NCBI GenBank assembly: GCA_030039165.1
Contig: JASHQM010000040.1
Span: forward strand, 24,522 to 88,521
Length of the DNA: 64,000 nt
Source: Candidatus Sulfotelmatobacter sp.
GTDB lineage: Bacteria; Acidobacteriota; Terriglobia; Terriglobales; Acidobacteriaceae
Direction: 5' to 3'
Each line of letters begins with the position of its first letter. The stretch's first letter is position 1. The notes under the pieces were generated by a model that was given only the letters and a program-made list of their open reading frames with translations, was not told where the DNA came from and ran no database searches. A program made the translations under genes and the position numbers. This document shows positions 4,465 to 35,474 of this stretch, in pieces.

Positions 4465-7400
4465 CTAATTGCTCCCTGTCCCGGCAAGGCTGACTTCCTG
4501 CGGCGAGGAACCGGCGCCATAGCTAACTGTCAAAACGCCACTAAGGGTGCCAGTTGCGGTTGGGCTGAACTCTACGCCGATGGTGCACAGACTGTTGGCA
4601 GGAATGTTCGTGCCGCACGCTGGACTGCCTCCCGTGGTCGCGACGAAGTCGCCGCTGGCAACCAGGCTGTTGATGGGAACTGCCGCAGCCGTGTTGTTGG
4701 TCAGCGTAACTACCTGCGCTGAACTCGAGCTTCCCACGGCAACGGTACCGAACGAAAGCGAGGTCGGCGAGACGTTAACGGCGAGGATGCCGGTGCCGAT
4801 TGCATTCTGCACTTCGGTAATCGTGGAAGCATTGTCGCTCAAGGTGATGCCGCCGACGAGCGATCCCGCAATCGTCGGAGTGACGGTGACAGTCACTGTG
4901 CAAGACTTGCCTGCAGCCAGCGAGTAACCGGACGTGCAGGGCGTGGTCCCGCTTGGCGTGACGGTGAAGTATCCTCCTGCGGTAACGCTGTTGATGGTCA
5001 CTGGCGAACTGGTTGTGTTCTTGATCGTGGTGGTTTTCGAGGTCGGAGTGTTGAGCACAACATTGCCAAAATTCAAACTTGCCGGGCTGAAGGTCAAGGG
5101 CTCAGCCGGGCCGTTTTGGCCGGTTCCAGTCATTCCTCCAACAGCGATAGGCGCACTTGCCCCGGTGGGAGTGATCGACACCGAGCCTTTAATCAGGCCA
5201 TTCGTCGTAGGCGTAAAGCTCACCGCGAATGTGCACTTGGATTTGGCAGCCAGAGTCCCATTGCAGGGAGCTGAGCCGTCGCCAACAACCGAATAATCTC
5301 CGGTGACCGCGGTGGTGTAGGTAAAGCTCGTGCTCTGGTTGTTGGTGAAGGTCATGGTCTGGGCGGTACTGGTCGTTCCCACGTTTGTGGCTGGATAGGA
5401 AAGATTGCTCGAGACTGTGACCGGCAGCAGGCCGGCGCCCGTAAGGGTGACGATCTGCGGCGCCCCGGTGACGCTGTCGTTGATGGTAATCGCACCGGAG
5501 ATGGCGCCTGTTACACCCGGCGTGAAATTGACGGTGATTGCGCAGGACTGCCCGGGAGTGAGATTGGTGCCGGTACAGTTGTCGCTTTCCGCATAGTCGC
5601 CGCTGGCTGCAACGGAACTCACCGCGAAATTAACAAAGCCGCTGTTAGTCACCGTGATGTTCTGGCCGGCGCTTGTGGTGTTCAGAACTTGACTGCCAAA
5701 TGCAAGCGTTCCCGGGCTTACCGTAATGGCGGATGTGGCCCCGGCGCCCGTGAGAGATGCGGTTTGAGGACTGCTGCTCGCATTGTCGGTGATCGTGAGC
5801 GTACCAGTGATCGTGCCCGTGGTGTTAGGAGTGAAATAGACGCTGATGGTGCAATTGCCATTCGGAGCAAGCGGCTGCTGGCAGGTATTGGTTTGAGTGT
5901 ACGCTCCCCCGGCGGCAATGCCCGTGATGTTGAGGTCGGTCGTCATGTTATTGGTGACTGTTTCAACCATGGGGCTGGATTTGGTCCCAACCTGCACACT
6001 GCCGAAATTCAGCAGCACAGTGGAAAGCGAAACCGGTCCACCCGCGCAGGTGCTCATGGGCGGCAGCTTGCCGATCTCTGTATACCAATAAGGCTCGGTC
6101 GTACGGTTGGTGGGCAGATACTCGCCCGCAACCCAGACGGTGCAGGAGTCGCTGGGATCGAGCACTGCGCTATACCAATCTCCCCAGCGATAATTCAGGC
6201 TGTCGGTATCTTCAGCATCGCCGTCGGTATTGGGATTAGCGACATAGCCCCATGTGCTTTCGGTCAGCGAGCCTGGAACGAAGGTAACGGTGTCGAGTCC
6301 CGGATGCTCATTGACGCCGCTGCCAGAGATTCCCAGGATACCTTGCAGATTCCCTGCTTTGTCCCGCGCGATGCTGGGGAGCACGACGTAGGCATTCGCG
6401 TCGACTGGGTCGAGGATAGGATAATCTCCCGCGACATAAACCGCGCCCAGGCTGTTGCGCTGGAGGATGCGGATGTCGGCTTCGGTCTGCGTAAAGTTTG
6501 TGGGATTGGGATTGATCTGGATGGCGTGGGCCGACGTCCAAATACTGCCCTGGCCGCCGCTTGAAGTGTAGTGAAAGAACTGCTGCATGCGGTCGGCAAC
6601 CGAGTCGATGTAGATGCCCGTAGTAGCCGTGGAAGGTTGCGGAACACAGACCGTATCGTAGTAATTGAGTGGATTGAAGCAGCCGAGCTGATCCCCATTA
6701 GCCTGAGTCGAGGGCAGATCCCAGCTGTTGAGCAACGTAGGAGTCGGAGTAGCTGCAGACCAATTGATGGTCCATTGCTGCACGCCCTGCGTGGCCGTGG
6801 GGCTGGTCAGATAGGATGTGCCGTTCTTGGGCGGCTCGATCATGTAAGTGAACATTTCGCCATCGGCATCGATGGGCGGCGTTGTGTCGGAGTTATTCGC
6901 CGGCACCCAGCTGCGCTGCTGGTTATATGGGGTGATGGCACTGCTCAATGTGCAGGCGGGAGCATGCGAGTTGTTTATATATGGACTGGAAGTGCTGGCA
7001 CGCAGCCCGGCCAAATCGACGGCGCAGATGAGCACGGTAACGATGTCATCGCCATTGTTAGGATCCTGCAAATCGTAAGTGATCCACATGGCCTGATCCG
7101 TTGCCGCCGTGTAGGGTGGAGCTGTGCTCGTGGAGCTTTGCCAGAGGCCGGATTGCGGATAATCGGGGTAATAGTAATTGCCGTGCGAATTGGTAGGAAT
7201 GACGTTGTCGAGGTTGTATTCGAAGGCGAACCAGCTAAAAGAGGACGAAGAGACGTCCTCGACGTTACTGATGGCGACGCACATGTAGTTATCGCCATTG
7301 AGCTTGGAGGTAATTCGCTTCTCCAGAATCCAGAGATTGTAGACGTTGTCGTGCAGCATCTGCGAGTTAGGCGAAAAGGCGGTCGGGCAGTTGGGAGTGT

Positions 7401-7728
7401 TGCCACTATTGTCGCTGTTCTGGCTCCAGGGACCGGAATCGGATTTGGGGGTCGTGCTGCCCAAGAAATTGACGGGCTGATTGGCATTGGCGCCGCTTTT
7501 GTACCAGCACTGGTAGGCGCTGTTGACATGCTCGCAGTATTCCAGCGTGCCTACAGCGATAGTCGGATCTGGAGTGGCCGTCGGATTCTCCCCTTTGACC
7601 CCTGTGCTAAGTCCGGCAAAAGTACTGAGGCTGCCTGATTGCGCAAAAGTACCGGCACAGACGATGAGTGCGAATGAAGCAACCAGCGCGGCTTGCGCGG
7701 ATAGAGTCAGCAAACGAAGTTCTTTCAT
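4465..7728 (-). CDS. large secreted protein: unrecognised ~550-aa N-terminal region + five choice-of-anchor-D / ASH(HYDIN)-type Ig-like repeats
   Basis: 1100-aa ORF. Signal-like MKELRLLTLSAQAALVASFALIVCAGTFAQ; ATG 7728 lies 9 nt after GGGGA, with ATG 7734 and 7767 as alternatives. The C-terminal half is five ~100-aa repeats of the pattern L.FG.V.VG..S....T.TN.....I.S......F.......C......L....SC.I.V.F.P...G...G.L. Confidence 0.85.
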   Translation of the reverse strand: MKELRLLTLSAQAALVASFALIVCAGTFAQSGSLSTFAGLSTGVKGENPTATPDPTIAVGTLEYCEHVNSAYQCWYKSGANANQPVNFLGSTTPKSDSGPWSQNSDNSGNTPNCPTAFSPNSQMLHDNVYNLWILEKRITSKLNGDNYMCVAISNVEDVSSSSFSWFAFEYNLDNVIPTNSHGNYYYPDYPQSGLWQSSTSTAPPYTAATDQAMWITYDLQDPNNGDDIVTVLICAVDLAGLRASTSSPYINNSHAPACTLSSAITPYNQQRSWVPANNSDTTPPIDADGEMFTYMIEPPKNGTSYLTSPTATQGVQQWTINWSAATPTPTLLNSWDLPSTQANGDQLGCFNPLNYYDTVCVPQPSTATTGIYIDSVADRMQQFFHYTSSGGQGSIWTSAHAIQINPNPTNFTQTEADIRILQRNSLGAVYVAGDYPILDPVDANAYVVLPSIARDKAGNLQGILGISGSGVNEHPGLDTVTFVPGSLTESTWGYVANPNTDGDAEDTDSLNYRWGDWYSAVLDPSDSCTVWVAGEYLPTNRTTEPYWYTEIGKLPPMSTCAGGPVSLSTVLLNFGSVQVGTKSSPMVETVTNNMTTDLNITGIAAGGAYTQTNTCQQPLAPNGNCTISVYFTPNTTGTITGTLTITDNASSSPQTASLTGAGATSAITVSPGTLAFGSQVLNTTSAGQNITVTNSGFVNFAVSSVAASGDYAESDNCTGTNLTPGQSCAITVNFTPGVTGAISGAITINDSVTGAPQIVTLTGAGLLPVTVSSNLSYPATNVGTTSTAQTMTFTNNQSTSFTYTTAVTGDYSVVGDGSAPCNGTLAAKSKCTFAVSFTPTTNGLIKGSVSITPTGASAPIAVGGMTGTGQNGPAEPLTFSPASLNFGNVVLNTPTSKTTTIKNTTSSPVTINSVTAGGYFTVTPSGTTPCTSGYSLAAGKSCTVTVTVTPTIAGSLVGGITLSDNASTITEVQNAIGTGILAVNVSPTSLSFGTVAVGSSSSAQVVTLTNNTAAAVPINSLVASGDFVATTGGSPACGTNIPANSLCTIGVEFSPTATGTLSGVLTVSYGAGSSPQEVSLAGTGSN
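4468..6040 (-). repeat. five tandem ~300-nt coding repeats (choice-of-anchor-D-like domains)
   Basis: Protein-level periodicity is visible from ...GGPVSLSTVLLNFGSVQVGT to the C-terminus. Each unit ends in (L/M)TG(A/T)G. Divergent at the DNA level. Confidence 0.7.
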
Positions 7729-7851
7729 GAACATCTTCCCCAGGAATTGTGGCCTAGAACGGCGCATAGCGAGTTCCCCATCTGCCGGACCTCCGGCAGC
7801 TTTCTCAAATTTAAGTAATGATGTAATTTGGGGGATTTTTACTGCGCCGCT

Positions 7852-8919
7852 TTACTGTTCTGCGGTCTTGCGACTTGCTGGTTCCGTAATTTTCATTTGT
7901 CGATATTTTTGCCAGACCGCGGTCGGGACGAACGAATACAGTGCCGGAATCAAAGCGTCCTGTCCGCGGAGAATTGAGAGACGAATGCTGTCGCTTACGC
8001 GTTCCGTCCACGAAGCCGGTCGCGTTGTATGGCTTACGACTGCCTTGGCCGGCCACCCGCCGTATTGCTTTCTCCACAATGCGACGTAGCGTTCTACTTT
8101 GTTTCTAAAGTCGGGCGACAGAACTTCGGGGCGCTCGCGTGCGGCCATGATCGCTGCACCATTCACCCCGGAGTGGTGGTCACCGTTGTAAATGGCCGAT
8201 CGATCAGCACCATCCAGCGACGTCATTCTTGGGCTGTACCCGATACCGATGAAATCGCAAATTGTTCTCGCCGCTGACTCGGGATCGCGCACCAGGTCGT
8301 CATATTGCAACTGGTGAATCTCAGCGCCGCGACGGATCAGTTGATCAGTTTCCTGCTTCATGCGGTGACAGCCAAGCAGAGCGCGCAGATCCATGCCAGG
8401 ACGAGCGAACCACAGGGATTGTTTGGCAGCACGCGCCACGCTGCGGCAGACGTCGGCCGGATCGCGCCAGATCACGATAAACTTCGCCTGCGGGAAATGG
8501 TCGGCAAGCTGGGTCATCCGATCGTAATAGTTGGGTGACTTGCATCCCCAGATCGTCGCGCCCCTGCTGGCCGCATACTGCTGGGCGACGGAGCGGAATG
8601 CCGAAGGCATGTTGCTTACGTCTCCGGGAAGAGAGGCGGTATCGATTTTGTGACGCGTGAGCGCCCCGTTCCAGGAATCGAGTTTCTCCATCCACCAACC
8701 CCTCCTCCGAGGTAAGGAAAACAGGGTCGTCAGCAGAAAGAAGTCGGATTCGTACATCAATCCGATTTGCGGGTGCTGATTGAGCAGGGCATAAAGCAGC
8801 GAAGTTCCCGAGCGCCACATGCCAATGACAAAGAGCGGACCTGGAGCCATTGCTCCGCCGCTTCGGACAACCTTATCGCTGTCCCGGCTCTCCATTCTTA
8901 TGTCAACGGCTGCACTCAT
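7852..8919 (-). CDS. sulfotransferase family protein
   Basis: 5'-PSB-like P-loop FVIGMWRSGTSLLYALL and 3'-PB-like IVIWRDPADVCRSV. ATG 8919 overlaps the upstream GT4 stop (tcat at 8916-8919 = ATGA on the minus strand). Confidence 0.85.
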   Translation of the reverse strand: MSAAVDIRMESRDSDKVVRSGGAMAPGPLFVIGMWRSGTSLLYALLNQHPQIGLMYESDFFLLTTLFSLPRRRGWWMEKLDSWNGALTRHKIDTASLPGDVSNMPSAFRSVAQQYAASRGATIWGCKSPNYYDRMTQLADHFPQAKFIVIWRDPADVCRSVARAAKQSLWFARPGMDLRALLGCHRMKQETDQLIRRGAEIHQLQYDDLVRDPESAARTICDFIGIGYSPRMTSLDGADRSAIYNGDHHSGVNGAAIMAARERPEVLSPDFRNKVERYVALWRKQYGGWPAKAVVSHTTRPASWTERVSDSIRLSILRGQDALIPALYSFVPTAVWQKYRQMKITEPASRKTAEQ

Positions 8920-10109
8920 GCTGCTGCCTGCACCTGCGAAAAAATACTCATGAGATTCTTATATCCTTGCTCCGGACCGTATTTAGTTTCGGTCAAACGG
9001 CGACCGTGGCCGCCCATGCGGATTGCCGCAGCGGGATCACCGGCAAGGTTTCGGATTTTTTGCGCGAGTTCACTCACCTTGCCGGCTTCAAATAAAAAAC
9101 CGGAGCGTCCCTCTTCCACGATGTAGGGCAAGCCTCCCATGCGTGAAGCGACCACCGGCTTCGCCGCCATAAATGCTTCCAGAACGGTGACGGGAAAATT
9201 CTCATACCACTCCGACGGCAAAACCAGGCAGAGCGCATCGCGCAGCAGTTGCCATTTCTCGTTGCCGCTCCTGAAGCCGAGAAACTCCACGTTCCCAATT
9301 CCCTTCTGGCGAACGTAATCGCGCAACTCCTGCTCCTGCGGCCCGGTTCCAATGATCTTCAGCGGAACCTCGGGCAGTTGTTCGAAGGCGCGGATCAGCG
9401 TCATGCAGCCTTTCTCAGGCGACAAGCGCCCGAGATAAAGTGCGTACTTGCCTGGGCTAGATATCTCCCCGGTCAGCGGCGGAGCGTACACAAAATTGGG
9501 GCGGACAAAAAGCTTGGAATCCGGAACGCCAAACTCGTGCATCTTGATTTTGAAAAACTCAGTGAGGCAGATGAATCCTGCAATCTTGTTCACCATGCCA
9601 GCCAGGCGGTTCGCGCCCAGCGCCGCACCGTACAGGCCGCTGAGAGCATAACTGTCTTTGTAGCAGCGGTTCCGCACTGCATTCAGATAATTGCCGTGCT
9701 TGCAGGCCTCACAAATCCGCCCCTTCGTGTAAAAGAATCCGTTCGGGCAGAAAGGCCGGAAATTATGCAGTACCTGCACCGCCGGCACGCCCAACGAATA
9801 CAGCTTGTGATAGACGGACGGCGAAATCAGCGGATAAATATTGTGCACAAATGCGACGTCGGGTTTGAAAGCCCGCACTACATCCCCGACTTCATCGCTG
9901 CTGCGCCATGAATAAATCGTTTGCGGGAGAAAAGCGGCCTTCTCGGCAATGTCGAACGACTTGATCTCGTCATTGTGGCGGGAGTAAACGAAAACTTCAT
10001 CGCCATAGCGTTCCAGCAGTTCGCGCTCGGCGCGCACCACGGAGTCCTCTCCGCCGAACTGCTGGTAGGCGCCGTGAATGAGCAAAACTCTCATCGGATC
10101 ATGAGCCAC
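8916..10109 (-). CDS. glycosyltransferase family 4 (GT-B, retaining type)
   Basis: N-terminal MRVLLIHGAYQQFGGEDS. C-terminal EX7E region LPSEWYENFPVTVLEAFMAAKPVVASRMGGLPYIVEEGRSGFLFE. ORF start is GTG 10109; ATG 10094 is an alternative. Confidence 0.9.
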   Translation of the reverse strand: MAHDPMRVLLIHGAYQQFGGEDSVVRAERELLERYGDEVFVYSRHNDEIKSFDIAEKAAFLPQTIYSWRSSDEVGDVVRAFKPDVAFVHNIYPLISPSVYHKLYSLGVPAVQVLHNFRPFCPNGFFYTKGRICEACKHGNYLNAVRNRCYKDSYALSGLYGAALGANRLAGMVNKIAGFICLTEFFKIKMHEFGVPDSKLFVRPNFVYAPPLTGEISSPGKYALYLGRLSPEKGCMTLIRAFEQLPEVPLKIIGTGPQEQELRDYVRQKGIGNVEFLGFRSGNEKWQLLRDALCLVLPSEWYENFPVTVLEAFMAAKPVVASRMGGLPYIVEEGRSGFLFEAGKVSELAQKIRNLAGDPAAAIRMGGHGRRLTETKYGPEQGYKNLMSIFSQVQAAA

Positions 10110-10175
10110 GAATTCGCACGGAATAATTCTTTCTCATCGATCCGTGTGAACCCGCGCAAAACGGTGGCAAAGACT

Positions 10176-10973
10176 TTACGCGTTCCCGTATTTCGCGATC
10201 CCCAGCAGCTCGAGAATGATCCGGTAAACGAACTTCGGGTTGTTCACCAGATAGCGTTTCCATAGCCGTTTGGGATCCTGATAAATGCGGTGCATCCATT
10301 GCATGCCGGTGAGCTTCATCCAATAGGGAGCGTCTTTGATGCGGCCGGTATGAATATCGAAGGCTGCGCCCACACCGAACATGATGTGCGCGTCGAGCTT
10401 CGAGATGTACTGGTCCATAAAGCGCTCTTGCTTCGGCGTGCTCAGGCCGACCCAGAAGAAGTCCGGTTTCATTTCGGCGACCATGCGAATAAGATCGGCC
10501 TCTTCCTCCGCGTTCAGGGGGCTGAACGGAGGAGTGTACGTGCCGACCACATTCATTCTTGGAAAGCGCGCCGTGAGCGATTTTTTTAGCTGCCCGGCGA
10601 CACCTTCGACGCCTCCGTAGAAGAAGTGCGTGTAGCGCTTCTCCTCCGACAGGGCGCAAAGCTTCAGCATCATGTCCGGGCCGGTGACCTGTCGCATCCT
10701 GAAAAATCCGCGCAGCCATCCCACCCAGACGGTCGGGCGGCCGTCGGGAGTGGTCAGCACGGAGTTGTTGATGATGCGCTTGAGGTTGGAATCGACCTGG
10801 GCTTCCATGATGCCCTGCACGCCGGTGACGCAGACATAGCCTTTCTCGCCATTGCGCAACGCCGATTCGATGCGCGCGAGGGCGCGGTCCATGCTGGTGG
10901 CATGCACCTTGACCCCAAGAATGCTTACACAGTCGTCGGCGGCGAAATTGGACAAAGCGGCGGTCGTGGCCAA
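10176..10973 (-). CDS. WecB/TagA/CpsF-family glycosyltransferase (GT26)
   Basis: ILGVKVHATSMDRALARIE...GYVCVTGVQGIMEA...TPDGRPTVWV...FGVGAAFD pattern typical of GT26. TTG start 10973, one nt after the epimerase stop. Confidence 0.85.
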   Translation of the reverse strand: MATTAALSNFAADDCVSILGVKVHATSMDRALARIESALRNGEKGYVCVTGVQGIMEAQVDSNLKRIINNSVLTTPDGRPTVWVGWLRGFFRMRQVTGPDMMLKLCALSEEKRYTHFFYGGVEGVAGQLKKSLTARFPRMNVVGTYTPPFSPLNAEEEADLIRMVAEMKPDFFWVGLSTPKQERFMDQYISKLDAHIMFGVGAAFDIHTGRIKDAPYWMKLTGMQWMHRIYQDPKRLWKRYLVNNPKFVYRIILELLGIAKYGNA

Positions 10974-10974
10974 G

Positions 10975-25902: not shown

Positions 25903-26015
25903 GATTAATCAGTCCTAAGGAACTGCAGAATTTTCCGGGGAAAAGGGGAGAAACTTCTCTGAAACCGACTCAAATGACGAGCAGCCCACCAGCCCGTCAG
26001 TTCAACTGCCGGCCA

Positions 26016-28001: not shown

Positions 28002-28096
28002 GAATTACCGCGCCCTTTTTGATCTCAGTGGTTGCCGTTGTGAGTTGGGGGGAATAACAAAAATGCGGGATAGCCACCTGCAAAGATTACGCAGCC

Positions 28097-29239: not shown

Positions 29240-29305
29240 GGCTGTTCCCTCTCTCCTTGTGTTCCCGGCCCAGATATCCTTGAGCTTTGTAGTTCGAAAA
29301 ATCTC

Positions 29306-29971
29306 TTACGCCGATGCGGAGGTGGATGCCGCCGCATTCGCCGGAATCGCTGCCGGCGCCGCCTTCGCTTCAGCCCCTGGCAACTTCGCTTCAGCCGGGG
29401 CGTTTGCCACTTCCGGCTTCTTCACAAACCGCTGCGGACGCCCGCCCGGCAACTTGATTCGGGCCGGCACGCCCATGACCATCATGTTGTCGCGCACGTC
29501 GGTGAGCACCAGACTGTTGGCGGCGATCACCACGTTGCTGCCGATTTTGGCGTCACCAACGAGTTTCGCTCCCGGCCCGAAGTACACGTTGTCGCCAATG
29601 CCGCGGCAGGCGTGTGAAATCAGACATCCGGTCGCAATGGTGAAATTCTTCCCGATCTTCGTGGCGCCCAGGTTAATGGCGTACACGGAATGGATCACAA
29701 AGCCCGGGCCGATCTCGGCGCGAACGTCAATGTGCACGCTGGTGAAGACTTCCACAAACTTGCGCAAAAACAGCGCGGAAATTCTGAGCAACTGGCCAAC
29801 CAGCGGAATTTGCACGCCGCGCGCCCAACGGGAAAAGCGGTAGGCGACCACCGGCCAGGTCGCGTGCCGGATCATTCCTTCCAGCCGCTTACCCATGCTT
29901 GGTTGCCAGTTGGGATCGTTGCGGGTTTCGCGCAGCGCCCGGTCTATATCTTGACGAAGGTTCTCGAACAT
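29306..29971 (-). CDS. hexapeptide-repeat acyltransferase, serine O-acetyltransferase (CysE/EpsC)-like, with Ala/Pro-rich C-terminal tail
   Basis: IDVRAEIGPGFVIHSVYAINLGATKIGKNFTIATGCLI...GDNVYFGPGAKLVGDAKIGSNVVIAANSLVLTDV is a left-handed beta-helix. The last ~38 aa are low complexity (KKPEVANAPAEAKLPGAEAKAAPAAIPANAAASTSASA). Confidence 0.8.
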   Translation of the reverse strand: MFENLRQDIDRALRETRNDPNWQPSMGKRLEGMIRHATWPVVAYRFSRWARGVQIPLVGQLLRISALFLRKFVEVFTSVHIDVRAEIGPGFVIHSVYAINLGATKIGKNFTIATGCLISHACRGIGDNVYFGPGAKLVGDAKIGSNVVIAANSLVLTDVRDNMMVMGVPARIKLPGGRPQRFVKKPEVANAPAEAKLPGAEAKAAPAAIPANAAASTSASA

Positions 29972-29983
29972 TTCTATTTCCGC

Positions 29984-30775
29984 TTAGAGCTTCTTGTAAA
30001 TCTTTTCGGGCACGGGGAACGTCCGGTGATTGAGCACTGCGCCCAGCAGTCTGACGTTTGCTACGGCAAGATCGTGAACCGCCTGCTTGGCCGTTTCCCG
30101 GCGCGAAGAGTTCGCCCGCAGAACCAGTACGACGCCTTCGGCATAGCGGCTCAGGGCAATCGTATCGTCGCCCGGCCGCATGGGCGGGGCATCGACGAGA
30201 ACGTAGTCGAATTCGCGTTGCAGCTCTGGGAGGAGCGAACGCATGCGCTCGCTGCCCAGCAGGGCGTGCGATTTCTGTGTTTCCGAACCGCAGCTCATCA
30301 GCCAGAGATTCGAACGGGAAAGCTGGGTAACAAAGCCGCGCACTGGCTCATAGGTCTGCAAGCAATCGGAAAGACCATAGTGGTTGGGCACCTCGAACTG
30401 TGCGTGCAAACCCGGGGATCGCAAATTCGCGTCCACCAGGCAAACCGTGCCGGAGGTTTGCGAGGCCAGCACTTCACCCATGCGCGCGCAAATCCAACTG
30501 CCACCGTTGCCCGCTTCCGTCGCGGAAACTACCACCAGCCGCGATCCGTCATGGCCGGGGGCGAAGAATACACGCTGCACCAGTTTGAAGATTTCATCGC
30601 GCTGCCCGTCTTCCATCTTCAAGGCCAGTGGCTTGAGGTCGACCGGCGGCTTAGGCTCGGCCATGCTCGCAGTCACTGCGGCGGGCGCAGCTGCCACGGA
30701 CAGAGACTCGATAGAGGTCTGGAACATGTCGCGTTCCTTACCCAGATTCTGCATCAGTTCGAAATTCTTGCTCAT
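29984..30775 (-). CDS. BY-kinase-like (CpsD/CapB/EpsG-type) P-loop protein with degenerate Walker A
   Basis: Walker A' CLVDANLRSP and Walker B DYVLVDAPP are present. The Walker A position reads SATEAGNGGSW (no Lys, nt ~30497-30511). No C-terminal Tyr cluster (tail ...FPVPEKIYKKL). Confidence 0.75.
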   Translation of the reverse strand: MSKNFELMQNLGKERDMFQTSIESLSVAAAPAAVTASMAEPKPPVDLKPLALKMEDGQRDEIFKLVQRVFFAPGHDGSRLVVVSATEAGNGGSWICARMGEVLASQTSGTVCLVDANLRSPGLHAQFEVPNHYGLSDCLQTYEPVRGFVTQLSRSNLWLMSCGSETQKSHALLGSERMRSLLPELQREFDYVLVDAPPMRPGDDTIALSRYAEGVVLVLRANSSRRETAKQAVHDLAVANVRLLGAVLNHRTFPVPEKIYKKL

Positions 30776-30827
30776 AAACTCCTTGGGTCTAACGCCGGCC
30801 GAAACAAACCTGATCCGTGTACATACC

Positions 30828-31898
30828 TTAGCTTACGGGAGTGTCGGAACGCGTTCCGCTACGCCAGTTGTTCAACAGCCGGGCGACATCGCGCATATGC
30901 TGCATCGCTTCCGCCGGGGTCAACGAGTCCTTCTTCTTTTGCGAAACTTCGGAGTGACTGTTGCCATTGGCCCCACTGCCGTTGTCCCCGTCCCTGCGCG
31001 ACTCATAGGGCTCGGGCATGGGATCGCTGCTCAAAACCCCGGTAGACATCATTCTCGACATGGTCAAGGGCACTTCGACTTCCGACATGAAGCGGTGTAT
31101 ATCCAGATCGTTGGCCACCTCACGCACGATTTGGAGATCCACGACCTTTTTTCGCTCGGCACAAGCCAGCGAAAGGGAATGGAAGCAATAGTTGTTGATT
31201 TGCCGGGGGATACCTTCGCTCGCGTCGGCGAGCAGTGCCAGCGCCTCGGGCGTAAATAAGCTGCGTCCATTGTGTCCGGCGACCTTCAAACGATGATCGA
31301 TGAAGCGCTGAGTTTCAAGCGGCGAAAGCGGAGTCAACCCGCTCAGGGAGGTGATTCTCTGCCGCAACTGCGTCAGGGCCGAACTGGCCAGTTTATCCGC
31401 CAGTGATGGCTGGCCGACCAGAATGATCTGCAGCAGCTTGGCCTGCGGCGTTTCGAAGTCGGAGAGCAGGCGCACGGTTTCGAGAACCGAGGCATCCAGG
31501 TTCTGTGCCTCGTCGATAACTACGATGAAGCGCCGGCCGGCGCGCGCTTCCTGCACCAGACAGCGGTTGAACTGCTCGTGCATGCGCACGAAATCGTTGC
31601 TTTCGTTTTCGATTCCGATTTCCGCCAGCAGAAAGCGCATGAACTCGCGCGAGTTGCACTGCGTCTGAAAAATAAACGCGGTGCGCGCCGTGTGCGAAAA
31701 CTTGGCCAGTAGATGAAACAGCAAAGTGGTTTTTCCCATGCCCGGGCGTGCCACCAGGGACAGGAATCCGCGATCTGCCTCGATGCCGTAATAGAGCGAC
31801 GCCAGCGCTTCCCGGTGCGCCGGGCCGAGATACAGATACCGTGGGTCCGGCGATACGCCGAAAGGTTGCTCTCGCAATCCAAAGAATTCAAGAAACAT
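30828..31898 (-). CDS. ExeA/GspA-like AAA ATPase of the PEP-CTERM-locus type
   Basis: N-terminal FFGLREQPFGVSPDPRYLYLGPAHREAL, P-loop ARPGMGKTTLL, and DEAQ box VVIDEAQNL. These are the features recalled for TIGR03015. Confidence 0.85.
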   Translation of the reverse strand: MFLEFFGLREQPFGVSPDPRYLYLGPAHREALASLYYGIEADRGFLSLVARPGMGKTTLLFHLLAKFSHTARTAFIFQTQCNSREFMRFLLAEIGIENESNDFVRMHEQFNRCLVQEARAGRRFIVVIDEAQNLDASVLETVRLLSDFETPQAKLLQIILVGQPSLADKLASSALTQLRQRITSLSGLTPLSPLETQRFIDHRLKVAGHNGRSLFTPEALALLADASEGIPRQINNYCFHSLSLACAERKKVVDLQIVREVANDLDIHRFMSEVEVPLTMSRMMSTGVLSSDPMPEPYESRRDGDNGSGANGNSHSEVSQKKKDSLTPAEAMQHMRDVARLLNNWRSGTRSDTPVS

Positions 31899-31926
31899 GA
31901 CTTTACCTTCTGCCTTTCCGGGGGAC

Positions 31927-33561
31927 TTAGTTGTCCATATTGCCGCTTACTTCGTGAGTGCTCTCACTGCCATTTCCGTGCACCGTTTCACTGCTGTTGC
32001 CATTGCCGTGGCCGTTTCCGCTCTTGTTAAGCGCACTGCCTTTGCTTTGCTGCGTAGGAACTGCAGCCAGCACCGGAATTCTCAACTCCGCCATGACCTC
32101 CGATGGAGTGCGGAACGACTGGTCGGCGTAATCGAGGGCGAAAACCACTCCCAGGCTGACAGCTGATGCCAACAAGCAAGCCACCAGACCGAAAATCCAG
32201 GGCGAGCGCGTCGGCAAGCTGGGAAGGGACGGGTTTTGCGCGATCGAGACGTTAAGGATGCGCGTCTTATCCATGGCGTCGGAAATCCTCGCCTCCTCGC
32301 GCTTCTTCGTGTAAAGCAGGTAATTGCCTTCGGCTGCAGTCTTGGCGCGTATCAGGTCGCCTTGCCGGATTGATTGCTCATCCAGGTTCTTGGCCTTTTC
32401 CCTGTACCAATTCACGGTGGCCTCAAGGCTTCTCTCCCTGGCCTGGTATCCGCTCAAATCAGCCTTCGCCTTGGCCAACTCGGAAGCGACCCACACGTAA
32501 GTCGAGTTCTGATCTGTAGTTTCCTCAGTGACCGGGGCAGCTTCTTCCTGCGCCAGGGCAGCTTTGGTATCGGCGATCTCTTTATCGACCTCTACCACCA
32601 GTGGATAAGTCGGCTGATACTTCGTGAGCAGTTCGGTGCGCTTGTTTTCGAGCGTGACCAAAGTCGACTTCAGAGTTTCCAGAACCTGTGCATTCTGTCC
32701 TTTTTTCACCTGTGTTGTCAGGCGGGTCGGCGTGGAGTGCGACTGGGCTTCGAGGTCGGCGATCCGCCTTTCACTTTCAGCGATGGAAGCCCTGGTTGTA
32801 TCGAGCGTGCTGCTGAAATCGGCCAGCTTTTGGAGAATCATGTCCCGCTGGGTGGTGGGCGCCACACCATTCTGCTCATCCGAAAATCTTGCCAGCTCGC
32901 CCTCGACTGTCATCATCTCTTTTTTGTACTTGTCCGCTTCCCGCTCGAAAAATTCGGCCTGCCCCGAAGGATGATGCACTTCCAGGTGTTTGTCCAGGTA
33001 TGCTTTATCGAGCGTGGCCAGTACCCGTTGCGCCAACTCGGGCTTATGCGATTCGTAGGCGATACTGATGACGTTGGTCTTCTTGATCACTTCCAGCTGC
33101 AGATCAGAGCGCAGACGAACCACCGCACGGTCAGTGCGATTCTGCAGCGTCTCGCCGGGGTGGAAGACGCTGCCCAGGAAGGTTTTCTGGTCGAGGCCGC
33201 AAGTGGTAACAACTTTTTGGAGCACATCCTGGCTCTGAATCAACTCCACTTCGGAGTTGATCTCTTCTTCGCTCACCGTGTCGTGGAACATCAAGGGAGC
33301 ATTTTGCTCAGGGCTGACGACAGGATCGACTCTTTCGCGGTTCACCAGCAGCTTGGTTTCGGCCCGGTACTTCGCCGGCAAAGCCAGAGCTGAGAGCATC
33401 ACGCCCAGGGCAACACCAACAAAACAGAGCGCCATCACTCGCTGATGGCGGAATCCAATGGCCACCACGTCTCTCGCCGTGAAACTGTAGGGTCTGTGTC
33501 CGGTTTTGAAAATTGAATCGTTCATTGGTTGCAGTCTCCGTACCGCCTTCGCTTCCATCAC
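31927..33561 (-). CDS. polysaccharide chain-length determinant / co-polymerase (Wzz/GumC family)
   Basis: TM helix - long coiled-coil periplasmic region - C-terminal TM helix (WIFGLVACLLASAVSLGVVFAL). Wzz-like N-terminal motif. His/Gly/Asn-rich tail. Confidence 0.85.
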   Translation of the reverse strand: MMEAKAVRRLQPMNDSIFKTGHRPYSFTARDVVAIGFRHQRVMALCFVGVALGVMLSALALPAKYRAETKLLVNRERVDPVVSPEQNAPLMFHDTVSEEEINSEVELIQSQDVLQKVVTTCGLDQKTFLGSVFHPGETLQNRTDRAVVRLRSDLQLEVIKKTNVISIAYESHKPELAQRVLATLDKAYLDKHLEVHHPSGQAEFFEREADKYKKEMMTVEGELARFSDEQNGVAPTTQRDMILQKLADFSSTLDTTRASIAESERRIADLEAQSHSTPTRLTTQVKKGQNAQVLETLKSTLVTLENKRTELLTKYQPTYPLVVEVDKEIADTKAALAQEEAAPVTEETTDQNSTYVWVASELAKAKADLSGYQARERSLEATVNWYREKAKNLDEQSIRQGDLIRAKTAAEGNYLLYTKKREEARISDAMDKTRILNVSIAQNPSLPSLPTRSPWIFGLVACLLASAVSLGVVFALDYADQSFRTPSEVMAELRIPVLAAVPTQQSKGSALNKSGNGHGNGNSSETVHGNGSESTHEVSGNMDN

Positions 33562-33594
33562 CCCGGGGGAAATAGCTCGTCCGAACCCGTCGTA

Positions 33595-34356
33595 TCAGGG
33601 AATCTGCAACGGCAGGTACGTTCCCGCGCTCAGATTGGGCACCACTCGGTCAATTTTGGACAAGGTATTCTTCGGGACGAATAACATGTCGCCCGAGTGC
33701 AGGAATGGGTCTTCGCGCAGGTCGCGGTTCTTTTCCATTTTCTTGACATCGATCAGTTTGGCTTCAGTCCACTGGTCGTCGATGCGGCGGAACAGCACCA
33801 CCTGGGAATGCTTCGCGCTCGATTGAAAGCCTCCCGCAATGGCAATGGCCTGGGTTACGGTTATATTTCCGTGCATGTCATATTTGCCGGGCTTTGCCAC
33901 CTGGCCGTCGGCGACGAAATAAGGCTTCTCGAAATCTTTCAGCACAACCGAGATGGGCGGGTTATTCAGAAACTTTCCATAAGCCGATTTCAGCGTTGCC
34001 GTCAGCTCTGGAACGGTCATTCCGGCGACCTTCAGTTCTGCGATCCCGCGTAGAGTAACGAAACCATCGGGTTGTACCGCGACGGCCGTTTGATTGAACT
34101 CGGGGCTGAGATCGAAGGTGAGATCGAAGGTGTCGCCCGCCTCGATGTGGTAGCGCGGAGTACGCGAGTTGAATTGCGGACCGTTTGCCGCGGGCTTGGA
34201 CGCGTCGCTCTTGCTCGCGTCCGGCGCCCCGCTGGTCGCAGCGGAAGTTGTACTTGAAGCCGTGGTCGTCTGCGCCGAGCAAATCATCGCGCTCAGCAGG
34301 CATGCCGCCAATGCGGTCAGCAACGGCTGCTTAATTGAGTTCGTAATCATTGTCAA
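33595..34356 (-). CDS. polysaccharide export protein (Wza/EpsE-like, Poly_export + SLBB)
   Basis: Signal peptide. YHIEAGDTFDLTF...VQPDGFVTLRGIAELKVAGMTVPEL (Poly_export), followed by YFVADGQVAKPGKYDMHGNITVTQAIAIAGG (SLBB). Confidence 0.85.
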   Translation of the reverse strand: MTMITNSIKQPLLTALAACLLSAMICSAQTTTASSTTSAATSGAPDASKSDASKPAANGPQFNSRTPRYHIEAGDTFDLTFDLSPEFNQTAVAVQPDGFVTLRGIAELKVAGMTVPELTATLKSAYGKFLNNPPISVVLKDFEKPYFVADGQVAKPGKYDMHGNITVTQAIAIAGGFQSSAKHSQVVLFRRIDDQWTEAKLIDVKKMEKNRDLREDPFLHSGDMLFVPKNTLSKIDRVVPNLSAGTYLPLQIP

Positions 34357-34470
34357 ACCTCCGTACTGTTCATCGCTTTAGCTCGCGCAGGTTCCCGGCC
34401 CGTAAAGGCAGACTAAGCGCGGTCGCCGCCGCACAGCTGCAACCCTCGGCCGCTGCCGCCGCTTGGCGGG

Positions 34471-34776
34471 TTATTCCGCCTTCGCCGACTCAGCGACCAG
34501 AGGCTGAACCTGTCGTACGGTGTTCGGGCTCAGATTGTGCTGACGAATCTTGTACAAGATTCCGCGATAACTGATGGACAGCAACTGAGCCGCCCGGCGT
34601 CGATTCCAGCCAGTGTATTCCAGAGTGCGGGTGATGGCGTAAATTTCCGCTTCGGCGCGCAGACTGCGCAGCGAAAAGTGCGGATCGCTCAGCGGCTGCT
34701 CGGGATTCTCGCCGGATTCGGCTTTGGGCACGGGATTGCCAGTTTTATTGGCTTTCACCTTGTTTTCTAATTCCAT
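34471..34776 (-). CDS. stand-alone Fis-type (HTH_8) DNA-binding protein
   Basis: C-terminal AEAEIYAITRTLEYTGWNRRRAAQLLSISYRGILYKIRQHNL. No receiver or AAA+ domain. ATG 34776 preferred; the ORF extends to 34818. Confidence 0.65.
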   Translation of the reverse strand: MELENKVKANKTGNPVPKAESGENPEQPLSDPHFSLRSLRAEAEIYAITRTLEYTGWNRRRAAQLLSISYRGILYKIRQHNLSPNTVRQVQPLVAESAKAE

Positions 34777-34839
34777 ATGACTAGCCTCGCAACAGAAGTG
34801 AACGTGACTTATTTTCAAACCGGGGGAAAGGAGGGAACT

Positions 34840-35400
34840 CTAAACGGGTTCCACCTCGTAGCCGGCGACGCGCACATACAACGAGCGCTGAATCGGTTCC
34901 ACCGAAATCACTAGGCTGCGGTCGCCATTCTCGGCAACCAGAATTCCCTGAACTCCGTCCAGGGCTCCGCCGCGGACTCGCACGCGCTGGCCGAGGCGAA
35001 GATAAGGACGTTCATCGTAGGGAATTCTGCTGGCGAGGAGGGTCTTAATATCTTCGATCTGATGGTCGGGAATCGGGGTTCCACCGCCCTGCACCCCGAC
35101 GAAGCTCACCACGCCCTGAGTTTTGAGCACGCGAACTCTCTCGTCGGAAGTATGGATCATGCGCAGGAAGGCGTAACCGGAAAACAGGGGGGTTTCGACT
35201 TGCTTGCGGCGGTCGCTCCAGCTGTGAGTCTGCGTGACCACTGGAAGAAACGATTCGATGCCTTGACTTGCCAGTTGCCGCGCGACTAGCTTTTCATGGC
35301 GTGAGCGGGTGCGAACGGCGAACCATTGCGGCTGTTCCGGCCTTTGGCATTGCCCTTCCGCAGGCTGGAATCTCTGCATCACTGATGCCGCTCCGTTCAT
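34840..35400 (-). CDS. NusG-paralog transcription antiterminator (RfaH/UpxY/LoaP-like)
   Basis: NGN-domain start WFAVRTRSRHEKLVARQLASQGIESFLPV and KOW motif GQRVRVRGGALDGVQGILV. GGAG lies 3-6 nt upstream of ATG 35400. First gene of the minus-strand run. Confidence 0.85.
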   Translation of the reverse strand: MNGAASVMQRFQPAEGQCQRPEQPQWFAVRTRSRHEKLVARQLASQGIESFLPVVTQTHSWSDRRKQVETPLFSGYAFLRMIHTSDERVRVLKTQGVVSFVGVQGGGTPIPDHQIEDIKTLLASRIPYDERPYLRLGQRVRVRGGALDGVQGILVAENGDRSLVISVEPIQRSLYVRVAGYEVEPV

Positions 35401-35445
35401 GGCTCCGCCCTCTCAGTCACATTCCGCGATTCCAACAGGGAGGAA

Positions 35446-35474
35446 AATACACGCGTGAATATGGCATTGGTCAA
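35446..35474 (-). promoter_or_regulatory. candidate sigma70-type promoter for the EPS operon
   Basis: Minus strand: TTGACC (35474-35469), 17 nt, TGTATT (35451-35446), about 45 nt upstream of the NusG-paralog ATG. Pattern match only. Confidence 0.25.

Follow-up and report, generated by a model that had tools for sequence, protein, structure and literature searches.

We find that NRPS genes are embedded within a Wzx/Wzy-type polysaccharide locus, a block of 22 co-directional genes that occupies ~31 kb of the minus strand (35400..4465) in the 64-kb window, which is the whole stretch of DNA analyzed. We regard as evenly balanced the proposal that this locus, from an uncultured soil bacterium of Acidobacteriaceae type, encodes a Wzx/Wzy-dependent sulfated exopolysaccharide or capsule, with thiotemplate enzymes operating within the repeat-unit tailoring machinery. 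There is likewise about an even chance that the TE domain moves a basic aminoacyl or dipeptidyl group to the lipid-linked repeat unit before flipping, and we infer from sequence that this attachment would be covalent. Because more than 100 related soil genomes retain the pairing of NRPS and polysaccharide genes, the polymer is probably amino-acid-decorated, in a mode without earlier description. A modular NRPS within a Wzx/Wzy operon had been considered new in the initial annotation, and our literature search likewise found no published description of an NRPS integral to a polysaccharide operon.

All 22 of the open reading frames previously listed were confirmed, and Pfam and NCBIfam models back nearly every label given to them. 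Junctions and start sites were checked against the gene calls of the identical ENA contig. Intergenic gaps in the block reach 150 nt at most, and there are overlaps between three pairs of neighboring genes. The first gene (34840..35400; all features described here are on the minus strand) encodes a UpxY-family NusG-like antiterminator (NF033644, 122.6 bits, cutoff 100; Pfam NusG). Directly 3′ of the last gene, 57 nt past its stop codon, is the sole strong terminator-like hairpin of the minus strand (4389..4408), composed of a stem of eight G-C pairs followed by TTTTTTG. Given the short gaps, the overlaps, the antiterminator at the start and the lone strong terminator at the end, the best reading is that the genes form a single long operon under antiterminator control. 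GC content is uniform throughout the block, the flanking genes are unrelated and lie on the opposite strand, and no tRNA or Rfam RNA was found within the window. The gap between the priming transferase and the first NRPS gene is 16 nt (24434/24451), that between the second NRPS gene and the Wzx-like gene is 28 nt (17079/17108), and our minus-strand hairpin search found no strong terminator-like hairpin at the NRPS junctions. These gap lengths match those reported earlier, as do the ATGA stop/start overlaps at 8916-8919 and 13665-13668, which the ENA gene calls reproduce. The 14-50-nt overlap once proposed at 22563-22612 does not hold, since the ENA start at 22573 yields an overlap of 11 nt between the two NRPS genes.

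The core Wzx/Wzy set begins with a priming polyprenyl-phosphate hexose-1-phosphate transferase (24451..25902) carrying Bac_transf and CoA_binding_3 domains (TIGR03025, 421.6, cutoff 295.55). It also includes a GT26 glycosyltransferase of the WecG/TagA/CpsF family (10176..10973; PF03808; TIGR00696, 136.6, cutoff 69), a GT4 glycosyltransferase (8916..10094; PF00534, PF13692), and two sulfotransferases, one of the Sulfotransfer_1 type (14790..15686; PF00685, E 3e-33) and the other of the Sulfotransfer_3 type (7852..8919; PF13469, E 3e-33). A nucleotide-sugar epimerase/dehydratase (10975..11982; PF01370) retains 75-93% identity across the family; the label 'GME-like' must be withdrawn, as this is a generic SDR protein whose best model, GDP-fucose synthase, scores far under cutoff. 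The set is completed by a MOP/Wzx-like protein, a Wzy-type polymerase (12106..13668; PF04932, 41.1, cutoff 31.7), a Wzz/GumC-like chain-length determinant or co-polymerase (31927..33561; PF02706, 25.6, cutoff 25.5; TIGR03007-like at 141 bits, below cutoff), a Wza/OPX-like outer-membrane polysaccharide export protein with Poly_export and SLBB domains (33595..34356), and a GH10 glycoside hydrolase (13665..14753; PF00331, E 4e-63) that is a probable polymer-trimming enzyme.

Several accessory genes accompany this set. A small Fis-type HTH regulator (34471..34818; PF02954 HTH_8, E 3e-9) is kept in loci L010, L057 and L161, and an AAA_22 ATPase (30828..31898; PF13401) resembles ExeA and the XrtA-locus ATPase (TIGR03015, 239 bits, below the cutoff of 324.5). 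The P-loop protein at 29984..30775 does resemble BY-kinases, as had been suggested, through matches to TIGR03018 and TIGR01007 that fall below cutoff. However, neither the canonical Walker A GK[ST] nor the C-terminal Tyr cluster was found when the sequence was read by eye, and the protein looks degenerate. The last gene (4465..7767) encodes an Ig-like repeat protein with choice-of-anchor D domains (NF012200 five times, ASH, Cep192_D4), whose N-terminus is hydrophobic and signal-peptide-like and which carries no PEP-CTERM tail.

The first NRPS gene (22563..24434) encodes a loading module, A(Leu)-T, with AMP-binding and PP-binding domains. Its specificity code DAWFLGNVVK, the most frequent leucine code (PMC12283262), recurs exactly or with one substitution in almost all of 80 genome loci examined. 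The product of the second gene, NRPS2 (17108..22573), has the order P450-C-A(basic amino acid)-T-TE, is covered by six Pfam domains, and retains intact catalytic motifs, including the heme Cys in FGYAAHFCFG as well as HHIIFD, GGHSL and GYSFG. Its A-domain code, DIEDIGTVIK, contains E239 and D278, a combination characteristic of codes for Arg, Lys or Orn.

Four additional genes should together produce a thioester of an oxidised prolyl group (pyrroline- or pyrrole-carboxyl), judging from their sequence relatives. The stand-alone A enzyme (26427..28001; code DLFYLALVCK) is proline-specific, with PltF and PigI as its best pocket matches and nine of ten code residues equal to those of PltF. Its partner is a type II peptidyl carrier protein of 86 aa (26016..26276) with the serine motif GIMDSMG, of the DS(M) type, whose best PDB matches are type II PCPs including PltL. 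Both proteins had been recognized previously, but their role in proline oxidation was overlooked. The carrier gene, which is also called on the ENA contig, is the frame at 26016..26276; the open reading frame at 26071..26379 is longer but is in the wrong frame. What had been labeled an acyl-CoA dehydrogenase (28097..29239) is instead an FAD-dependent L-prolyl-carrier-protein dehydrogenase, best matched by the PigA (418.6 bits) and RedW (412.9 bits) models and, among known proteins, by AnaB (4irn; 468 bits, compared with 303 bits for PigA). A left-handed beta-helix (hexapeptide-repeat) acyltransferase (29306..29971; PF00132) adjoins the dehydrogenase gene in three gene orders (L002, L035 and L071), and it is a candidate for transferring the acyl unit made from proline. 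Moreover, this acyltransferase and the proline cassette are retained in variant loci that lack a catalytic C domain. By model scores the enzyme is nearer to the acetyl-CoA-dependent CysE, WcaB and EpsC than to LpxA and LpxD, which are hexapeptide acyltransferases with acyl-ACP donors. This likeness speaks against transfer to the repeat unit, as does the absence from the locus of any sugar-amine-forming aminotransferase or deacetylase.

Comparative analysis drew on 80 genome loci selected by their NRPS genes and on a reverse search of metagenome loci seeded only with Wzx. NRPS and polysaccharide genes are paired in more than 100 related loci at 40-90% identity, spanning families of Acidobacteriota and MAGs labeled Verrucomicrobiia and Solibacter, and all of these relatives are uncultured MAGs or metagenome contigs. 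Many preserve the entire 22-gene synteny at 65-93% identity, and gene order in the family is extensively rearranged, with at least five NRPS architectures interleaved with the same polysaccharide genes. The arrangement described above (PGT, A-T, P450-C-A-T-TE, Wzx) is one of these. Another reads PGT, A-T-TE, Wzx, ST, Wzy, GT4, A-T, P450-C-A(His)-T-TE, and a third reads A-T, P450-A-T-TE, Wzx, GT4, C-A(His)-T-TE. The fourth is a trimodular form, and the fifth is truncated, without the Leu-A-T, the P450 and the HHxxxDG half of the C domain.

A basic-type code (D[IV]ExxGT..K) is present in 51 of the 80 NRPS-selected loci, and in 50 of these a Wzx homolog follows the T-TE directly, the exception being a 7-kb contig; conversely, the homolog is missing from 27 of the 29 loci without such a code. 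In the Wzx-seeded search, every one of the 56 loci whose upstream sequence was available has a T-TE immediately before the Wzx gene, even where Wzx identity falls to 50%. Across the family, the Wzx gene and the A-T-TE for basic amino acids are invariably adjacent. The truncated form retains an intact A-T-TE open reading frame of 1127-1133 aa in three lineages with pairwise identities of 72-77%, indicating that the conserved function is delivery of the basic residue. The polysaccharide-specific conserved element is the basic-amino-acid A-T-TE rather than the entire dipeptide line.

These data bear directly on the possibility that an NRPS gene cluster merely sits, by chance or recent insertion, in an ordinary and functionally unlinked exopolysaccharide locus. 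NRPS cassettes are evolutionarily mobile, and a related cassette is found alone. However, recurrence at such divergence and in differing gene orders, uniform GC, junctions that leave neither room nor signal for insertion scars, and the lack of junction terminators or window RNAs make this exceedingly improbable, and the Wzx-seeded search and the TE-Wzx adjacency effectively refute it. No locus without an NRPS was encountered among the NRPS-selected or Wzx-seeded relatives. The comparative evidence is thus decisive that the NRPS is a conserved, integral component of the locus rather than an abutting cluster.

A rather unlikely but more serious alternative is that one operon yields two products, wherein the product of the NRPS is a free small molecule (such as an oxidised Leu-(Lys/Orn/Arg) dipeptide, its C-terminal lactam or a diketopiperazine) that is merely co-regulated with the polysaccharide and leaves through a MATE-like MOP protein or is released into the matrix. 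Leu-A-T/P450/C-A-T-TE cassettes beside a PPTase, with second modules for Val, Gly or other residues, occur without polysaccharide genes in Verrucomicrobiota, Pyrinomonadales, Chloroflexia and Sphingomonas populi, and so such a line can yield a free product. Self-cyclisation of a C-terminal Lys/Orn-type residue is a documented mode of TE release (PMC12283262), and therefore even a lone A-T-TE would not strictly need an external acceptor. Both observations weaken the case for transfer, and the P450 has family-level likeness to cyclodipeptide-associated enzymes (TIGR04538, 200 bits, below cutoff). The MOP protein (15694..17079) is equivocal. It matches no Pfam or NCBIfam model, and a Foldseek search with a low-confidence predicted structure (pLDDT 54) ranked WzxE first with MATE and MurJ proteins also matching. 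Neither fold nor sequence can tell a Wzx flippase apart from an exporter of the MATE type for a small peptide. The name 'Wzx' is upheld by the MOP-type fold and by homologs that JGI calls O-antigen/teichoic acid export proteins, some of them carrying PF13440 and not MatE, but not by family models. If the MOP protein exported a peptide, loci that each carry a PGT and Wzy would have no flippase, as none other was found among the genes annotated in them. Furthermore, the basic-type A-T-TE is essentially confined to polysaccharide loci, and the NRPS genes are scattered, in several different orders, between genes for glycosyltransferases, sulfotransferases and Wzy. Selection has also kept the lone A-T-TE after the remaining line was lost, and because hydrolysis of a single amino acid would bring no gain, these variants, together with the invariant TE-Wzx adjacency, strengthen the argument for transfer.

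Still less probable, in our estimation, is export of a low-molecular-weight glycopeptide or short oligomer whose functional core is the NRPS peptide, with the Und-PP-oligosaccharide pathway supplying secretion-coupled glycosylation. The NRPS/PKS locus for Collimonas carenaemin depends on a separate Wzy-type locus, and attachment of peptide to a lipid-linked sugar coupled to Wzx-mediated export has been hypothesised for that compound (PMC8313283). The TE-Wzx adjacency is compatible with such a scheme, and the degenerate-looking BY-kinase suggests that control of high-level polymerisation may be altered. Nevertheless, family-wide conservation of Wzy, Wzz, the Wza-like exporter and GH10 favors a true polymer that crosses the outer membrane.

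If the decorated polymer is indeed the product, its assembly could begin with Leu loaded on a T domain and oxidised there, most likely by beta-hydroxylation, by the fused and very highly conserved P450. The C domain would then join the oxidised Leu to the T-bound basic amino acid, and the TE, acting as a non-hydrolytic acyltransferase, would pass the dipeptidyl or aminoacyl group to the undecaprenyl-PP-linked repeat unit in the cytoplasm, at one of its hydroxyls or amines. The hexapeptide acyltransferase may move the proline-derived acyl group from the PCP to a sugar, and the sulfotransferases would add sulfate, before the dedicated Wzx flips the decorated unit for polymerisation by Wzy and export. 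Precedents for such transfers are LpxA and LpxD, with their acyl-ACP donors, and the TE of Pks13, a PDB relative of the NRPS2 TE, which moves mycolate to trehalose. The finished polymer would bear positive charge from its amino acids and negative charge from its sulfates.

All 22 consecutive minus-strand genes called between positions 35400 and 4465 are present as open reading frames (ORFs) in the window, and a metagenome contig from ENA (ERZ27241320:k141_452231, 38.7 kb), which matches the window in its Wzx protein and gene layout, carries an identical set of gene calls. Every intergenic distance in this block is 150 nt or less, and GC content is even throughout. The tight spacing reported in the initial annotation is likewise present. 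Comparison of the window with the ENA gene calls places 16 nt between the gene for the priming polyprenyl-phosphate hexose-1-phosphate transferase (PGT) and the first NRPS gene, whereas 28 nt separate the second NRPS gene from the Wzx-like gene, and ATGA overlaps join the GH10/Wzy and GT4/sulfotransferase pairs. The two NRPS genes also overlap, by 11 nt when the larger is taken to start at 22573, as in the ENA gene calls.

The first gene of the block encodes a NusG-like antiterminator of the UpxY family (NF033644, 122.6 bits against a cutoff of 100). At the opposite end, immediately 3′ of the last gene, a terminator-like hairpin of eight G-C pairs followed by a run of T residues lies at 4408-4389 (-). 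This is the sole convincing hairpin of this kind on the minus strand, and nothing comparable was evident when the NRPS junctions were scanned. The presence of a UpxY-type antiterminator and of a single terminator at the operon end suggests that the block is read as one long transcript. Scans of the window for tRNAs and Rfam families found none. The genes that flank the operon are unrelated and on the opposite strand, and encode an Ig-domain protein, a di-haem peroxidase, a MOFRL protein, hydrolases, and peptidases. Two of the flanking plus-strand genes converge with the operon end, namely that for an 815-aa He_PIG Ig-domain protein (154-2601) and that for a 416-aa protein (3087-4337) with no Pfam match even at E=5.

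The Pfam and NCBIfam models confirm the Fis-type HTH protein, the Poly_export/SLBB exporter, the AAA_22 ATPase, the hexapeptide acyltransferase, both sulfotransferases (Sulfotransfer_1 and Sulfotransfer_3), the GH10 enzyme, the SDR epimerase, and the GT26 and GT4 glycosyltransferases. The hallmarks of a Wzx/Wzy locus include the PGT (Bac_transf, 236 bits; TIGR03025, 421.6 with a cutoff of 295.55) and the Wzy polymerase (PF04932, Wzy_C, 41.1 with a cutoff of 31.7), and both are found. The Wzz-type co-polymerase has a borderline Wzz score (25.6, cutoff 25.5). The protein previously labeled as BY-kinase-like (29984-30775, minus strand) does match the P-loop family, but it falls below the TIGR01007 cutoff. 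Moreover, our reading of its sequence reveals neither a canonical Walker A GK[ST] motif nor a C-terminal Tyr cluster, and thus it may be a pseudo-kinase. Its gene adjoins that of the ExeA-like AAA_22 ATPase, as in XrtA-type loci. The last operon gene (4465-7767, minus strand) encodes an 1100-aa product with a signal-peptide-like N-terminus, five choice-of-anchor D / ASH / Cep192_D4 Ig-like domains, and no recognizable C-terminal sorting tail. Conservation of this protein, which may bind the matrix or the polymer, is limited to close relatives, at 63-80%.

The assignment of a Wzx flippase (15694..17079, minus strand) is tentative, as the protein matches nothing in Pfam or NCBIfam even at E=5. 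Its AlphaFold model has approximately 12 helices and a pLDDT of only 54, and so was used for superfamily assignment only. With this model, Foldseek retrieves MOP-superfamily structures exclusively; WzxE ranks at the top, and MATE and MurJ follow closely with similar scores. Homologs carry the JGI name O-antigen/teichoic acid export protein (COG2244-type), and a few carry PF13440.

Upstream of this Wzx-like gene, the Pfam domains define an A-T gene (22563..24434) and a P450-C-A-T-TE gene (17108..22573). The A, T, C, and TE domains are thus in the collinear order of a modular NRPS, and the catalytic motifs are intact, including the heme ligand segment FGYAAHFCFG, HHIIFD, two copies of GGHSL, GYSFG, and the A-domain core motifs. 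The A-T gene carries DAWFLGNVVK, the commonest Leu code. The second A domain reads DIEDIGTVIK and has the Glu239/Asp278 pair characteristic of domains that activate Arg, Lys, or Orn; the published Arg consensus is D[AV]ED[IVL]GA[VI][TD]K and an example of a Lys code is DGEDHGTVVK (PMC12283262). On the basis of this pair we call its predicted substrate a basic amino acid. The P450 paired with the A-T didomain is a true heme-thiolate enzyme, with the Cys ligand in FGYAAHFCFG and an EMLR motif, and this pairing is a feature of carrier-protein-dependent P450 tailoring of the NovH/NovI, NikP1/NikQ, and P450sky type. A match to TIGR04515 had raised the possibility of a heme-less P450-derived glycosyltransferase activator, which the intact Cys ligand and ExxR motif rule out. 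Its nearest solved relative is BioI, a P450 that acts on acyl-ACP, and the solved relatives of the TE domain include AB3403, EntF, and Pks13.

A second set of thiotemplate genes required correction. A 102-aa, Arg/His-rich ORF at 26071-26379 (-) was rejected as the carrier protein, as it overlaps the real gene in another frame. The actual carrier is an 86-aa ORF at 26016..26276 with a GIMDSMG motif, whose DS-containing product matches type II PCPs in the PDB (E 2e-8; PltL, E 4e-6) and Pfam PP-binding at E 0.007 only. The spurious ORF is longer than the real gene, and misleads simple longest-ORF picking. Similarly, the label of acyl-CoA dehydrogenase gives way to that of a probable L-prolyl-carrier-protein dehydrogenase, for which the nearest matches are PigA, RedW, and AnaB. 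The top NCBIfam models are PigA (418.6, cutoff 500) and RedW (412.9, cutoff 650), both under their equivalog cutoffs, and the nearest solved relative is AnaB (4irn, 468 bits), compared with 303 bits for PigA and at most 315 for other acyl-CoA dehydrogenases. The stand-alone A enzyme has the features of a Pro-specific enzyme: among PDB entries, PltF and PigI match its pocket most closely, and its code DLFYLALVCK equals that of PltF (DLLYLALVCK, read from the alignment) at nine of ten residues. Together, the A enzyme, PCP, and dehydrogenase therefore appear to form a proline-oxidation cassette that would yield a pyrroline- or pyrrole-2-carboxyl thioester.

To place this arrangement in a broader context, the large NRPS was searched in 185,579 species genomes, which gave 252 relatives. 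We kept 80 of these and compared all 22 window proteins with the corresponding loci by tblastn. Almost all are from MAGs of Acidobacteriaceae, Ca. Sulfotelmatobacter, Terriglobales, Pyrinomonadaceae, Blastocatellia, or Bryobacteraceae, and the minority comprises some Verrucomicrobiota, Gemmatimonadales, one Chloroflexia MAG, and a single isolate, Sphingomonas populi; the other relatives are uncultured. In the closest relatives, the block is preserved in full, at roughly 65-93% identity. When NRPS identity drops to 40-60%, gene orders and module architectures differ, and the NRPS genes are still interleaved with those for PGT, Wzx, sulfotransferase, GT4, GT26, and the epimerase. Wzy_C proteins are also encoded in the distant loci L045, L049, and L057, and no second MOP protein was found in distant loci.

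At least five architectures can be distinguished. In Type I, as in the window, the order is PGT, A(Leu)-T, P450-C-A(basic)-T-TE, and Wzx. Type III (loci L045, L063, L069, and L161) has PGT, A(basic)-T-TE, Wzx, sulfotransferase, Wzy, and GT4, followed by A(Leu)-T and P450-C-A(His)-T-TE, where DSALIAEVWK is the His code (PMC12283262). Type IV (L049, L059, and L071) splits the line into A(Leu)-T, P450-A(basic)-T-TE, Wzx, GT4, and C-A(His)-T-TE, and Type V (L017, L022, and L028) joins both modules in A(Leu)-T, P450-C-A(His)-C-A(basic)-T-TE, and Wzx. Type II (L116/L117, L123/L126, and L128) is a natural deletion variant in which the Leu A-T gene, the P450, and the N-terminal half of the C domain (HHxxxDG) are missing, and the remainder matches the window at 62-90% identity. 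What is left, a C-lobe remnant fused to A(basic)-T-TE, is an intact ORF of 1127-1133 aa in three lineages (L116:6571-9969, L126:6572-9970, and L128:6609-9989), with 72-77% identity to each other. Although the remnant could be taken for a different, starter C domain, it corresponds to the C-terminal half of the C domain found in the window, with HHxxxDG missing. Type II loci nevertheless keep the hexapeptide acyltransferase and the proline cassette though they have no catalytic C domain, and the acyltransferase is the only candidate transferase for the proline-derived group in these variants. Among the 51 loci with a basic-type code, 31 also have a Pro-type code.

A-domain codes extracted from all 80 loci reveal which parts are constant. 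The Leu code is essentially universal, and the basic-type code occurs in 51 loci. A Wzx homolog is present in 50 of these 51, always directly downstream of T-TE, and the one contig without it is 7 kb long and stops at the TE. Conversely, 27 of the 29 loci without a basic-type code have no Wzx. To remove ascertainment bias, we also searched in reverse, using an alignment of Wzx proteins only against metagenome contigs, which yielded 80 loci with 50-92% Wzx identity. Wherever at least 1.5 kb of upstream sequence was available, T-TE lies immediately upstream of Wzx (56/56, counting L160, which a distance filter alone had scored as negative). Hence the A(basic)-T-TE unit adjoining Wzx is the invariant polysaccharide-specific component, and the Leu/P450, His, and proline parts are variable add-ons.

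Distant members also contain genes that the window does not. The additional tailoring enzymes encoded in loci L017 and L045 (at L017:6845-8620, L017:5339-6469, L045:22298-23215, L045:19570-20595, and L045:24099-25184) are a carbamoyltransferase of the NodU/CmcH type, acylhydrolases of the GDSL/SGNH type, a formyltransferase, a monooxygenase resembling luciferase, and another stand-alone A enzyme, whose code is DLFFLCLIAK. The carbamoyl- and formyl-transferases and GDSL enzymes of such loci suggest extensive diversity of decoration. In L057, a P450-C didomain without A or T (9986-12703) precedes a separate C-A-T-TE (12756-16886), which results in two tandem C domains; by analogy with the X-domain idea for glycopeptides, the C domain fused to the P450 may serve in docking or recruitment.

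Conservation is highest everywhere in the P450, with 63-90% identity versus 40-60% for neighboring domains, and in mapped loci it directly follows the Leu A-T gene whatever its fusion partner. This includes loci that have no polysaccharide genes, where the order is Leu-A-T, P450, and C-A-T-TE and the second module carries a code for Val (DAFWLGGTFK) or Gly (DILQLGMIWK), or DAMHVGGVSK. Such cassettes lie at about 9.9-17.5 kb in each of L019, L023, L026, L031, L032, L040, L041, L075, L078, L079, and L080, and the gene that comes next usually encodes an Sfp-type PPTase (in 8 of 13 scanned loci). Their hosts are Acidobacteriota, Verrucomicrobiota, Gemmatimonadales, Chloroflexia, and the isolate Sphingomonas populi 3-7, and their P450s are 63-79% identical to that of the window even between phyla. 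Hidden glycan genes around loci without window-type EPS homologs were mostly ruled out, as the flanks hold PPTases, miscellaneous genes, and a few GT4s. The stand-alone cassette looks like a widespread, uncharacterized dipeptide natural-product family, for which S. populi offers a culturable entry point.

How might these components work together? We propose that the P450 would oxidize T-bound Leu, most likely by beta-hydroxylation, for which NovI, NikQ, OxyD, and P450sky are analogues, and that the C domain would then join the oxidized Leu to the T-bound basic residue. The TE would use the aminoacyl or peptidyl group to acylate a hydroxyl or an amine on the Und-PP-linked repeat unit in the cytoplasm, and the hexapeptide acyltransferase would move the oxidized prolyl group from its PCP by a logic like that of LpxA/LpxD. 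With the sulfotransferases acting in the cytoplasm, the dedicated Wzx would flip the decorated repeat unit; Wzy, Wzz, and the Wza-like exporter would polymerize and export it, and GH10 would trim the product.

The most secure element of this proposal is that the two gene sets belong together. Synteny, the loci that are rearranged but retain the pairing, and TE-Wzx adjacency strongly support the conclusion that the NRPS is integral to this family of polysaccharide loci and is kept there by selection, as originally suggested for its integration, and a fortuitous adjacency of NRPS and polysaccharide genes is scarcely credible. Whether the peptide or amino acid becomes covalently attached to the glycan is a more evenly balanced matter. 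Such decoration, as the initial annotation envisaged it, is plausible, and we consider its chances to be about even. Transfer is favored over free release because hydrolysis by a lone A-T-TE would be futile, because the TE-Wzx pairing is invariant and A-T-TE is kept after loss of the rest of the line, because the NRPS genes are dispersed among glycosyltransferase, sulfotransferase, and Wzy genes, and because no alternative flippase was found among the annotated genes.

The same loci could instead make a free peptide that is merely co-produced with the polymer, which we judge to be unlikely but deserving of serious attention. Related cassettes stand alone elsewhere, and TE-catalyzed lactamization of terminal basic residues is a known mode of release (PMC12283262). 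Further points against transfer are that Wzx and MATE cannot be told apart by their MOP fold, that no amino-sugar-forming genes are present in the locus, and that the acyltransferase is nearer to acetyl-CoA-dependent enzymes than to LpxA/LpxD in NCBIfam comparisons. It seems improbable to us that the exported product is a small glycopeptide and not a decorated polymer. Returning to decoration of the repeat unit, its fullest form would be an unrecognized hybrid pathway class in soil Acidobacteriota and in some loci from Verrucomicrobiia- and Solibacter-labeled MAGs. Under this tentative reading, which as a whole we rate slightly below an even chance, an NRPS TE would place an aminoacyl, dipeptidyl, or tripeptidyl group (a basic residue with or without His and oxidized Leu) on an undecaprenyl-PP-oligosaccharide, the hexapeptide acyltransferase would add a PCP-borne, proline-derived acyl group, and a co-evolved Wzx would flip the unit. 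The products would be sulfated zwitterionic peptido-polysaccharides, varied by the swapping of NRPS modules as O-antigens are varied by the swapping of glycosyltransferases.

Acidobacteriota are among the most abundant bacteria of soil and peat, where their exopolymers influence how soil aggregates, holds water, and stores carbon, and yet to our knowledge almost nothing is known of the chemistry of these polymers. If the proposal is true, it would add a new biosynthetic logic, in which a thiotemplate TE serves as a glycan acyltransferase, and a new polymer class that is possibly zwitterionic and metal- or mineral-binding, with decorations that could be engineered via NRPS module swaps. Genome mining is affected as well, since a tool that labels such loci "NRPS" would count them toward small-molecule potential. 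The natural variants (lone A-T-TE, truncated, bimodular, and trimodular) constitute a ready comparative series for experiments.

Full-text literature searches turned up neither this acidobacterial family nor any Wzx/Wzy locus described as having a modular NRPS within it, and searches on pyrrole-acylated polysaccharides and on the specificity codes found nothing direct. Several known systems share some of the features. The synechan (xss) cluster of Synechocystis, like the window with its Wzx-like protein, brings together PGT, Wzx, Wzy, OPX/PCP export, and PAPS-type sulfotransferases (PMC8205485). The abstract of that paper calls sulfated EPS unique to cyanobacteria among bacteria, whereas the window locus is acidobacterial. 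Synechan loci are not reported to have NRPS, P450, or carrier-protein genes. The export, chain-length, ATPase, kinase-like, and stand-alone A proteins have XrtA/PEP-CTERM models at or near the top of their matches (TIGR03007, 03015, 03018, 03027, and 03098). Membership in the exosortase systems was rejected, as every TIGR030xx match is under its curated cutoff; no exosortase was seen among the annotated window genes, and the window showed no PEP-CTERM tail.

DltABCD carries out D-alanylation of teichoic acids, and Vibrio AlmEFG carries out glycylation of lipid A. In both, an NRPS-type A enzyme loads a carrier and an ester-linked amino acid adds positive charge to a surface glycoconjugate, and DltA and DltC are among the PDB relatives found. 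However, in these systems the carrier stands alone and works with a membrane acyltransferase (DltB/DltD or AlmG), and C, TE, and P450 domains are lacking, whereas the modular NRPS of the window has C and TE domains and could assemble at most a di- or tripeptide, with the TE as proposed transferase. No gene for an MBOAT (DltB) or AlmG-like protein was found among the 22 locus genes, which places the locus outside the Dlt/Alm group, and the candidate transferases in the locus are the TE domain and the hexapeptide acyltransferase. A precedent for such a role is the TE of Pks13, a type I domain that moves mycolate to trehalose and thereby off-loads onto a sugar hydroxyl rather than water. Pks13 is a PKS whose acceptor is a free disaccharide, in contrast with the lipid-linked repeat unit and aminoacyl or peptidyl group proposed here.

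With the prolyl cassettes PltF/PltL/PltE, PigI/PigG/PigA, and AnaC/AnaD/AnaB, the window shares the Pro A enzyme, the type II PCP, and probably the FAD dehydrogenase. As AnaB, the nearest relative of this dehydrogenase, goes no further than pyrroline, the product could be at the oxidation state of either pyrroline or pyrrole, after a two-electron or a four-electron oxidation. In aminocoumarin biosynthesis (CloN4/N5/N3), the pyrrolyl group ends on the sugar noviose. The window cassette is not followed by a KS, a dedicated C domain, or a CloN2/CloN7-type transferase; its constant partner is the hexapeptide-repeat acyltransferase within the polysaccharide operon.

The UpxY-type antiterminator also has a parallel. 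Bacteroides capsular loci are long polysaccharide operons led by a locus-specific UpxY antiterminator, and the charges of B. fragilis PSA come from amino sugars and pyruvate; we know of no NRPS in these loci. The window locus likewise begins with a gene whose product exceeds the NF033644 cutoff, and its product may also be zwitterionic, but it is from a different phylum and its charges are proposed to come from amino acids and sulfate. For carenaemin of Collimonas arenae, it has been hypothesized that an NRPS peptide is joined to a lipid-linked sugar and exported by a Wzx/Wzy-type route (PMC8313283). In that case the mechanism is hypothetical, the assembly line is a PKS/NRPS hybrid whose product is small and diffusible, and two loci at different chromosomal sites take part (PMC8313283), whereas in the window family the NRPS is physically embedded and conserved inside the polysaccharide operon. 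Each part of the locus belongs to a known family, be it the Wzx/Wzy pathway, type I NRPS, prolyl-PCP oxidation cassette, or UpxY antiterminator, and there is a substantial chance that their combination, a Wzx/Wzy polysaccharide locus with thiotemplate tailoring, represents a new hybrid pathway class.
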